Shown here: in pieces, positions 1,388 through 4,578 of the stretch
Position numbering within the stretch: the first letter of the stretch is position 1
Layout of the letters: the number at the start of each line of letters is the position of its first letter
Virus record (IMG/VR): IMGVR_UViG_3300028549_003773
Strand: one strand, 5' to 3'
DNA: 14,941 bases
Source: a virus
Taxonomy: Duplodnaviria; Heunggongvirae; Uroviricota; Caudoviricetes
The notes under the pieces: generated by a model
The model's database searches: none
What the model was told of the DNA's origin: nothing
Seen by the model: the letters and a program-made list of their open reading frames with translations, nothing else
Made by a program: the position numbers and the translations under genes

Positions 1388-1696
1388 ATGAATGACTTAG
1401 AATTTCACAAAAGACTTATATCAAGCGTAACTAAACTTGGAGTAGTGGGAGATAAACTACATCACCATATACAAGATGTATGGGACGACGCTATTAAAAG
1501 TGTTACAGTAATAGATAATAGTAAAAAGAATAGTGCTACCGACGAAGATTTGCAATCTTTTAGAGACTTTATAGTGGATTCCACCAATACAGAAGTACTT
1601 GTAGATATATTTGAAGCAGAAACTTTTGATAGGTTGTGGAGTATGACGGATGAAGAATTACAAAAAGAAAAAGAATTTTATGGATATTTAGATTAA
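1388..1696 (+). CDS. Hypothetical protein (102 aa, acidic)
   Basis: SD AAAGGAG, ATG start, phage-like composition. Confidence 0.75.
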   Translation: MNDLEFHKRLISSVTKLGVVGDKLHHHIQDVWDDAIKSVTVIDNSKKNSATDEDLQSFRDFIVDSTNTEVLVDIFEAETFDRLWSMTDEELQKEKEFYGYLD

Positions 1697-2065
1697 TATA
1701 TTAAGGAGGTTGGCTTAGAAGCAGCCATTTGGTACAAGTCCTACTACTTAACGACAGAAATCGTTATTAGCGTCTCAGGGCCAACGTAGCCAAACTTATA
1801 CAAATAAGGGATAGCTATGCCTTTAAAGAGTGGATCGTGATACTTGGAATAGAGACGATAATGGGGAAACCATTACAGACTATTCCTCTATACGGATAGT
1901 AGTAGAACCTAAGATGAACTCTAGGACGTGGCCGTATAAGATGCAGCGGAGTAGTTCACCAGTGACTAGGCTGAGAGTGGTTGACTACTCGTGCCCATAC
2001 CTACACTGCAAAGTTAGACTCAACCATGGATCCTTTGGCGTAACAGCACACTTTTTATATTAATC
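1691..2065 (+). ncRNA. Stand-alone 23S rRNA GTPase-associated-centre (H43/H44) mimic interrupted by two structured insertions
   Basis: 1704-1728 AGGAGGTTGGCTTAGAAGCAGCCAT, 1820-1831 CCTTTAAAGAGT and 2038-2052 GCGTAACAGCACACT correspond in order to 23S rRNA ~1054-1078, ~1079-1090 and ~1091-1105 (E. coli numbering); closed by helix 1691-1700/2056-2065; no other rRNA sequence nearby. Confidence 0.8.
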
Positions 2066-2086
2066 GTTTTATTATTGAGGATAGGT

Positions 2087-2332
2087 ATGATTCAAACAAA
2101 ACATTTAACAATACATAAGTATCGTTTAAATACATTAGTAAATAAATCTAAAAAACTTTTGTTTCCCAGTATACGTGGTACTTTATTACCTAGTTTTGAT
2201 CCACAATATATTGCAGTTGATAGGGTAAAAATATCACCAACTACAACAACTTTTAGTAGAAAGCTAAACGGTATAGCAATAAATTGGTTATGGATAAGGA
2301 TAAAAATAATTGCAAGAGACTTCAGAATTTAA
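2087..2332 (+). CDS. Hypothetical protein (basic, ~81 aa)
   Basis: ATG at 2087 preceded by GAGG/AGG; preferred over the TTG start at 2075. Confidence 0.5.
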   Translation: MIQTKHLTIHKYRLNTLVNKSKKLLFPSIRGTLLPSFDPQYIAVDRVKISPTTTTFSRKLNGIAINWLWIRIKIIARDFRI

Positions 2333-4044: not shown

Positions 4045-4260
4045 ATGGATTTTATAGATTTTTTTGATATTTATAATGTTAAACATTTAGCAGCTTATAA
4101 ATATTTAGCAGAAAATGGGTCGTGGCCAGAAGGATTTATACCAGAAAATTGCGATTTGTCACCATATTGGATGTATCAAATAGCTGAAAAAATGGCTGTT
4201 GCTTATGTTGAACTTGGGGTTACTGGTAAAATATTTGGTATGCCAGCTATAGACCAATAA
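4045..4260 (+). CDS. Hypothetical protein (71 aa)
   Basis: SD AAGGAG, ATG start. Confidence 0.75.
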   Translation: MDFIDFFDIYNVKHLAAYKYLAENGSWPEGFIPENCDLSPYWMYQIAEKMAVAYVELGVTGKIFGMPAIDQ

Positions 4261-4273
4261 AAGAGGAATTTTA

Positions 4274-4483
4274 ATGAGTATACTTTATTGTCTTTTTGTT
4301 ATTTTAAACATAGCACTTGTATGTAAGTACTTTAAATTAGATGGGTCATTGGACTCAGGAATTGTTATGCTGGTAACTCTACTTGGTCAAGTAGGTACAG
4401 TGTTTATTTTACTTGGTTTATTTATTAACAAATTCGGCCTAAGTAAGTATTTTATTGTTCAAAACAATAAAAATAAAAATTAA
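4274..4483 (+). CDS. Small membrane protein (two hydrophobic segments)
   Basis: SD AAGAGG; hydrophobic stretches ILYCLFVILNIALVC and IVMLVTLLGQVGTVFILLGLFI. Confidence 0.7.
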   Translation: MSILYCLFVILNIALVCKYFKLDGSLDSGIVMLVTLLGQVGTVFILLGLFINKFGLSKYFIVQNNKNKN

Positions 4484-4504
4484 AAAGGTATTTATGCAAA
4501 ACCT

Positions 4505-4578
4505 GCGCCCGTCGCCAAATGGATAAGGCTTCAGATTTCTACTCTGACATTTTGGGGGTTCGACTCCCTCCGGGCGTA
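4505..4578 (+). tRNA. trnR: tRNA-Arg(TCT)
   Basis: Acceptor GCGCCCG/CGGGCGT; anticodon arm TCAGA-TTTCTAC-TCTGA; T loop TTCGACT. Confidence 0.92.

Follow-up and report, generated by a model that had tools for sequence, protein, structure and literature searches.

When a virus genome carries a copy of a ribosomal RNA domain that is interrupted twice, are the interruptions removed to leave a minimal domain, or do they stay in the RNA? We explored this question in a 14,941-nt stretch of viral DNA (hereafter the window), which makes up the final 15 kb of a virus record of 70 kb in IMG/VR and contains eight tRNA genes. At 1702–2054 (+), the GTPase-associated centre (GAC) of 23S rRNA (E. coli 1052–1107) is rebuilt from three pieces, separated by insert 1 (1729–1819, 91 nt), between U1078 and C1079, and insert 2 (1832–2037, 206 nt), between U1090 and G1091. 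An earlier reading, made from the letters alone and called here the sequence-only reading, had noted that both inserts can be placed to follow a U and end in G, as group I splice sites do, and had offered two options: a non-canonical bipartite ribozyme that splices itself out, or a permanent scaffold displaying the GAC.

A GAC copy in three pieces

The borders of both inserts, the U before each of them and the G at their ends were found as described. The 20-mer at 1709–1728 is exactly identical to E. coli 23S 1059–1078 (H43 with the A1067 loop), and the rest of H43/H44 comes from 1820–1831 (C1079–U1090) and 2038–2049 (G1091–C1102, including the A1095 loop), so that the base preceding each insert, U1078 or U1090, is rRNA-derived. 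The closing stem of the window copy is short and AU-rich. The parts of this GAC-mimic RNA are listed below; arm 2 was delimited from its MFE structure, from substitutions in two close relatives (L250 and L265) and from closing-helix statistics.

1702–1709 (+): closing (H42-like) stem, 5' strand, and base of H43; E. coli 23S 1052–1059
1709–1728 (+): H43 with A1067 loop; 20 nt identical to E. coli 23S 1059–1078
1729–1819 (+): insert 1 (arm 1); stem 1729–1733/1780–1784 and an irregular conserved UACAAG/CUCAGGG segment
1737–1775 (+): hp1 of insert 1, with tip 1749–1754/1761–1766
1785–1819 (+): hp2 of insert 1; interior hypervariable
1820–1831 (+): H43 base 3' strand, junction UUUAAAG and lower H44 5' strand; C1079–U1090
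1832–2033 (+): arm 2 (insert 2)
1832–1839/2025–2033 (+): arm 2 helix with bulged G2028
1846–1852/1880–1886 (+): arm 2 helix, with tip 1859–1864/1870–1875
1889–1895/1932–1938 (+): arm 2 helix, with hairpin 1908–1912/1921–1925
1942–1945/2007–2010 and 1949–1960/1979–1990 (+): arm 2 helices
2034–2037 (+): UUUG linker from arm 2 to G1091
2038–2054 (+): top of H44 with A1095 loop (GUAACA), H44 3' strand (U1101 changed to A) and closing-stem 3' strand

Searches with the whole element gave no match in Rfam at the gathering threshold or at E ≤ 10, barring one chance snoRNA hit, none by blastn in the INPHARED phage collection, and no second copy or shared module when blasted against the rest of the window. 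A promoter and terminator scan around the element returned nothing above chance, and the 102-aa ORF upstream yielded no relatives in a related-loci search. The closing-stem 5' strand contains AAGGAGG (window 1703–1709), a perfect Shine-Dalgarno look-alike; since the sole start codon after it, a TTG at 1710, runs into a stop two codons on, use as a ribosome-binding site is unlikely.

The element and its arms across the phage family

The H43 20-mer occurs at 110 IMG/VR loci, three of which are real 23S genes, and a free-standing GAC core is common to about 100 non-rRNA loci from IMG/VR and metagenomes (L232, L245, L246, L248, L250, L254 and L265 were added by a metagenome scan and one more IMG/VR scan). 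The non-23S loci share the layout GGRN-H43-CNUYUAARGAGU-[arm]-UUUG-GCGUAAYAGCAC-ACC, in which the 3' anchor GCGUAAYAGCAC is kept throughout. The window copy has all the features of the family (H43 20-mer, junction, GUAAYA loop, closing stem and a position outside an rRNA gene), together with the family features of the arm (closing helix 1832–1836/2029–2033 and UUUG at 2034–2037). A tRNA gene lies within 2 kb at 72 of 102 distinct loci, and at 24 of these 102 a same-strand tRNA ends no more than 40 nt upstream. Counted over 71 distinct cores, pair 1058:1080 is GC in 29, UA in 22, AU in 18 and CG in 1, the closing stem from 1055:1104 to 1052:1107 covaries through all four types (GC, AU, UA and CG), and 1056.1103 is constant as R.A. 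G1059:C1079 is paired in 69/71 cores and G1087:C1102 in 70/71, while U1090:A1101, G1091:C1100 (once as A:U) and C1092:G1099 are paired in 71/71. Since U1090:A1101 and the other pairs flanking both insert sites covary or are kept, the flanking pairs are under selection.

Neither Rfam 15 nor the literature that could be searched was found to contain the GAC-mimic RNA, which looks like a phage RNA family undescribed so far. Its H43 is changed at L265:758–777 (GUAGGC for GUUGGC and GGAG for GAAG in the 1065–1073 loop region), so scans with the "invariant" 20-mer miss part of the family. In L068 (minus strand), insert 1 and the start of arm 2 are present, a tRNA gene comes about 85 nt later, and the 3' GAC half is missing within 950 nt; this element is either a truncated copy or one split by a large insertion.

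Arm 2 was present in all 82 parsed elements, with lengths of 40–334 nt (the shortest, 40–43 nt, in L010 and L015) and many unrelated sequence types, and the arm-less form GAGUGCGUAAYAGCACAC had no match in IMG/VR. Its closing helix stands directly between GAGU and the UUUG linker, covaries over 3–5 bp and then gives way to internal loops; at least three consecutive bp are formed in 75 of 80 correctly parsed elements, two of the 82 having been mis-parsed and left out of this count (75/82 overall). Closing-helix sequences differ widely between elements, and strands paired better with their own partner than with that of another element (scores of 3.9 vs 2.8). The linker is UUUG in 70/82 elements (UUUA in 7, UUAG in 2, UUGG in 2 and CCUG in 1); a pairing between it and the junction UAAA, checked by eye, was rejected, the variants occurring without covariation. 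The base of the arm also carries motifs common to many subtypes, for example RCGAAG (5' side) and UAAGGnnGAAn (3' side). Arm 2 is an integral domain of the RNA with a variable periphery.

Site 1 is occupied in about one-eighth of the elements (unbiased 20-mer sample), by at least seven unrelated inserts, several of which are plain hairpins of 20–40 nt (the smallest, in L044, of about 20 nt). Being sparsely filled by inserts that are unrelated and sometimes this short, it behaves as a permissive expansion site. The window type (GGUACAAG-type insert 1) is a conserved cassette, CCAU/YGG-UACAAG-hp1-CUCAGGG-CCR-AC-hp2-G/CC (slashes at the insert borders), present in 8 distinct elements (besides the window, L250, L265, L248/L108, L245, L232, L246 and L254), and its Y:R pair covaries (U-A, C-G and U.G). 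At least four or five arm-2 types occur together with it, and the arm 2 of L248/L245 is homologous over its full length to those of L070 and L043, which lack the cassette. At L254:11920–12306 (minus strand; the same in L258), hp2 holds a 128-aa HNH endonuclease ORF (phrog_2255, E = 1.4e-37), around which the hp2 closing stem is retained and whose last codons cross the UUUAAAGAGUG GAC junction into arm 2. The cassette bears no likeness to H42 of E. coli 23S. A short-word blast of more than 80 elements against E. coli 16S, 23S and 5S yielded no significant match beyond the GAC itself; the arms thus do not recognisably copy any other part of E. coli rRNA. Copies of the sarcin-ricin loop were absent from the window arms, only a few family members came within 3 edits of it, and hp2 of L250 contains a hairpin loosely similar to this loop.

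The close relatives L250 and L265 have an arm 2 that is 94% and 91% identical to that of the window (91–94% among all three), while their DNA outside the element cannot be aligned with the window; among the three, the arms are as conserved as the core, loops included. All ten complementarities listed by the sequence-only reading, within and between inserts, are perfect in the window, and most of the local helices recur in the MFE structure of each arm. Compensatory changes in L250 and L265 support 1729–1732/1781–1784 (including 1730:1783), the hp2 closing stem 1786–1790/1814–1818 (four pairs), hairpin 1908–1912/1921–1925 (UA/AU/GC and CG/UA) and 1942–1945/2007–2010, and wobble changes only were seen in 1832–1836/2029–2033, 1846–1852/1880–1886, 1859–1864/1870–1875 and 1889–1895/1932–1938. 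Helix 1949–1960/1979–1990 is invariant barring a mismatch at 1953:1986 in L265, the one arm-2 substitution within the listed helices that is neither wobble nor compensatory. The earlier claim that the inserts are rich in helices holds for most of the local helices, kept in both relatives by wobble or compensation, and is not confirmed for 1915–1920/1953–1958, which is invariant and clashes with the 12-bp helix 1949–1960/1979–1990.

Both arms were only moderately more stable than shuffles (arm 1, z = −1.70, 14/200 shuffles folding as well; arm 2, z = −1.84, 9/200). In arm 2, covarying stems stand next to several invariant loops and linkers, a pattern that points to tertiary or ligand contacts. 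A 77-aa ORF overlapping arm 2 (1830–2063) was rejected as a gene: L265 carries a frameshift in it, substitutions show no preference for any of its codon positions, and a search for contigs encoding it gave no record. A 71-aa ORF further along the window, at 4045–4260 (+), has no significant Pfam or PHROG match and, alone among the window proteins, has homologues close to the element in both L250 and L265 (61–66% identity). These homologues lie about 220–380 nt downstream of the RNA in L265 and L250; in the window, about 2 kb with phosphoesterase and glycosyltransferase genes separates the RNA from the ORF.

Taken together, these comparative data suggest, with a probability that we put at roughly 70%, that the phage encodes a non-coding RNA with a free-standing GAC core, in which both insertions persist as structured accessory arms. 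The scaffold option of the sequence-only reading fits, given covarying closing helices at two fixed sites and arms conserved to the same degree as the core.

Alternatives to retained arms

One or both inserts could instead be introns, self-splicing or protein-helped, whose removal would mature a GAC RNA of about 60 nt; we judge this to be very unlikely. The RNA minus both inserts is indeed a near-perfect bacterial GAC, the U and G borders are those of group I introns, and insert 2 lies exactly at L1090, a genuine group I intron site in fungal LSU rDNA (PMC1299323). Insert 1 is sporadic, and the HNH ORF in its hp2 in one relative, L254, is a classic intron feature. Against this, models of group I and group II introns, GIR1 and small self-cleaving ribozymes gave no match in window 1600–2150 at E ≤ 10, Rfam intron and ribozyme models none in the loci of 12 relatives at E ≤ 1, and RF00028 none anywhere in the 70-kb record at E ≤ 10 (of the control genomes searched in the same way, 8/14 gave a score, 2 of them above the cut-off). 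The canonical group I P7 that the sequence-only reading had been unable to find did not emerge from the covariance-model search either, which detected no group I core. No P1-type 6-nt guide was present in the first 80 nt of arm 2 in the window, L250 or L265, and across the family a P1-like guide occurred in 12/79 members, vs 7.0 expected from shuffles. The terminal (omega) G of group I introns is an A at the end of insert 2 in 7/82 elements (G in 75/82), and inserts at site 1 end in U, C, A or G depending on type, those other than the window type in U, C or A. A group I ribozyme core needs about 200 nt or more; insert 1 of the window has 91 nt, and family arms go down to 40–43 nt at site 2 and about 20 nt at site 1, and arms of 20–40 nt are, to our knowledge, too small for any known self-splicing core. 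Moreover, insert 2 is never absent, and the ends of the inserts pair together in a covarying closing stem, an arrangement unlike that of group I splice sites. Along with arms that do not pair with each other in relatives, these results tell against the bipartite ribozyme that had been envisaged. Bacterial 23S rRNA also has intervening sequences that are excised by RNase III, and by analogy the arms, as helical outgrowths of rRNA-like helices, might be cut out without religation, the GAC being held together by base pairing. We find this barely credible: the closing helices run for 3–5 bp before reaching internal loops, long perfect duplexes of the RNase III type are lacking (the longest window helix has 12 bp with a mismatch and is far from the junction), and the 12-nt middle piece would hang on about 5 base pairs.

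The patchiness of the window-type cassette and its HNH-bearing copy allow a mobile or intron-derived origin of insert 1, by homing into the invariant DNA of the GAC mimic, the cassette being now tolerated or co-opted as an arm. Its conservation in eight elements, its association with several arm-2 types, including one shared with cassette-free relatives, and the closing stem kept around the ORF would agree with such an origin, which we nevertheless consider unlikely: repeated loss accounts equally well for the patchiness, the ORF is found in one copy only, HNH genes are often found free-standing in the tRNA regions of phages, and without the ORF the cassette is about 40–110 nt long and matches no ribozyme model. 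Its frequency, moreover, is biased by a search pattern that required the cassette. The IMG/VR pattern CAGCCATN{0,3}GGTACAAG was too loose and returned mostly chance matches in coding sequence. A bolder version, in which the cassette would be a new small mobile RNA homing via HNH and, with arm 2 at L1090, would derive from introns domesticated as arms or still removed by a non-group-I mechanism, seems quite improbable. The sequence-only reading had also proposed that the inserts pair with each other, and arms pairing mutually or with the 5' end could form a pseudoknot or a switch hiding and exposing the GAC. The perfect inter-arm complementarities of 8, 6 and 6 nt are, however, at chance level, an 8-mer Watson-Crick match between inserts being present in 20% of dinucleotide shuffles and the 8 inter-insert 6-mer matches (shuffle mean 4.7) being reached in 15%. 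Only one of the three cross helices is intact in relatives; the other two are broken there and face competition from local stems that are conserved or covary: 1741–1748/1898–1905 loses two positions and overlaps the conserved local stem 1744–1746/1768–1770, while 1738–1743/1922–1927 shows apparent compensation in L250, yet is broken at two positions in L265, and its competitor, the local hairpin 1908–1912/1921–1925, covaries perfectly. The third, 1771–1776/1852–1857, is kept in the window, L250 and L265, with uninformative variation; in other cassette-bearing members the hp1 stems are fully self-paired. Whole-element folding does favour long-range non-GAC pairings, by about 20 kcal/mol in nearest-neighbour MFE (−95.5 vs −75.9), and RNAalifold, run on two sequences, returned a global fold without the GAC in which 1706:2032 looked like a compensatory pair. 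The underlying pairing between the 5' end and the 3' side of the arm was rejected, as it does not covary across the family (own 3.77 vs other 3.81, p = 0.72), and we regard a pairing switch as highly improbable. The GAC fold depends on tertiary contacts, ions and uL11; the energetic preference for a non-GAC fold implies that the GAC fold of the element needs tertiary contacts, ions or protein.

Proposed architecture and known systems

If the arms are retained, the core of the RNA would consist of H43/H44 and a short closing stem, as a free-standing copy of the 23S GAC. Arm 2 would exit H44 between U1090 and G1091 through its short closing helix and a UUUG hinge, and arm 1 would be an optional expansion leaving the base of H43 between U1078 and C1079. 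Both would stay in a mature RNA of about 350 nt, presumably leaving the A1067 and A1095 loops unchanged in sequence, and the invariant loops of arm 2 may add tertiary contacts or extra binding sites. The element, which would be transcribed together with the neighbouring tRNA genes, might produce a decoy for uL11 or some other factor that binds the GAC, with the arms stabilising or extending it.

The RNA that bears the arms reproduces a functional centre of the ribosome and is widespread among phages. Should the arms be retained, the molecule to study would be one of about 350 nt with conserved loops of its own, not a minimal GAC of 60 nt, which would change what to express, probe and test for uL11 or other GAC ligands (translation GTPases, RelA-type factors and thiopeptides). 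In addition, the arms point to two places where large insertions are tolerated by the GAC fold, which is useful for RNA engineering, and the HNH-bearing cassette indicates that mobile DNA can in turn target such decoy genes.

With the bacterial 23S GAC (end of H42, H43 and H44; E. coli 1051–1108; the uL11/thiostrepton domain), the mimic shares the 20 nt of 1059–1078, the UUUAAAG junction and the GUAAYA loop, and it keeps 1057–1059/1079–1081, 1087:1102, 1090:1101, 1091:1100 and 1092:1099, with 1056.1103 as R.A; the Rfam LSU model gave a weak match to one relative (L024, model positions 1098–1143). Unlike the 23S GAC, the mimic is free-standing in phage tRNA regions, has A for U1101, always carries the 1090/1091 arm and sometimes carries the 1078/1079 arm.

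The tRNA regions of GAC-mimic phages gather several kinds of RNA look-alike. YrlA-type Y RNAs, tmRNA-like RNAs and RNase P-like RNAs share this genomic niche with the mimic and have no sequence or structural relation to it. A sub-threshold match to RNase P class A at L246:1980–2223 (+) (63.5 bits, gathering threshold 100, E = 4.7e-17) covers the full model span in just 244 nt, between tRNA genes and right downstream of the GAC mimic; it is a possible miniaturised RNase P-like RNA of phage origin. Other sub-threshold matches in tRNA regions were tmRNA-like at L024:4144–4232 (−) (41 bits) and YrlA-like at L029:5015–5109 and 4448–4506 (−) (36 and 26 bits).

Insert 2 has in common with the group I introns L1090 and L1094 of fungal nuclear LSU rDNA its position after U1090 and its usual terminal G (PMC1299323). 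It differs from them by lacking a group I core, P1 and P7, by a length that goes down to 40 nt, by a variable 3' G, by its presence in every member and by a host RNA that is a phage mimic rather than rRNA.

Leaders of ribosomal protein operons (the L1, L10, S8 and S15 autoregulatory sites) mimic rRNA binding sites; they are cis-regulatory and resemble rRNA loosely. Like the mimic, they copy a protein-binding site of rRNA outside the ribosome; unlike them, the mimic is a stand-alone phage gene, near-identical to rRNA and equipped with accessory arms. Expansion segments of rRNA are helical outgrowths of variable length that arise at fixed permissive sites and are retained in the mature rRNA. The arms of the mimic share with them fixed sites, a covarying closing helix, wide variation in length and sequence between lineages and conservation within lineages, and differ in that they stand on a mimic of about 60 nt, on which arm 2 is obligatory and has conserved base motifs and invariant loops.
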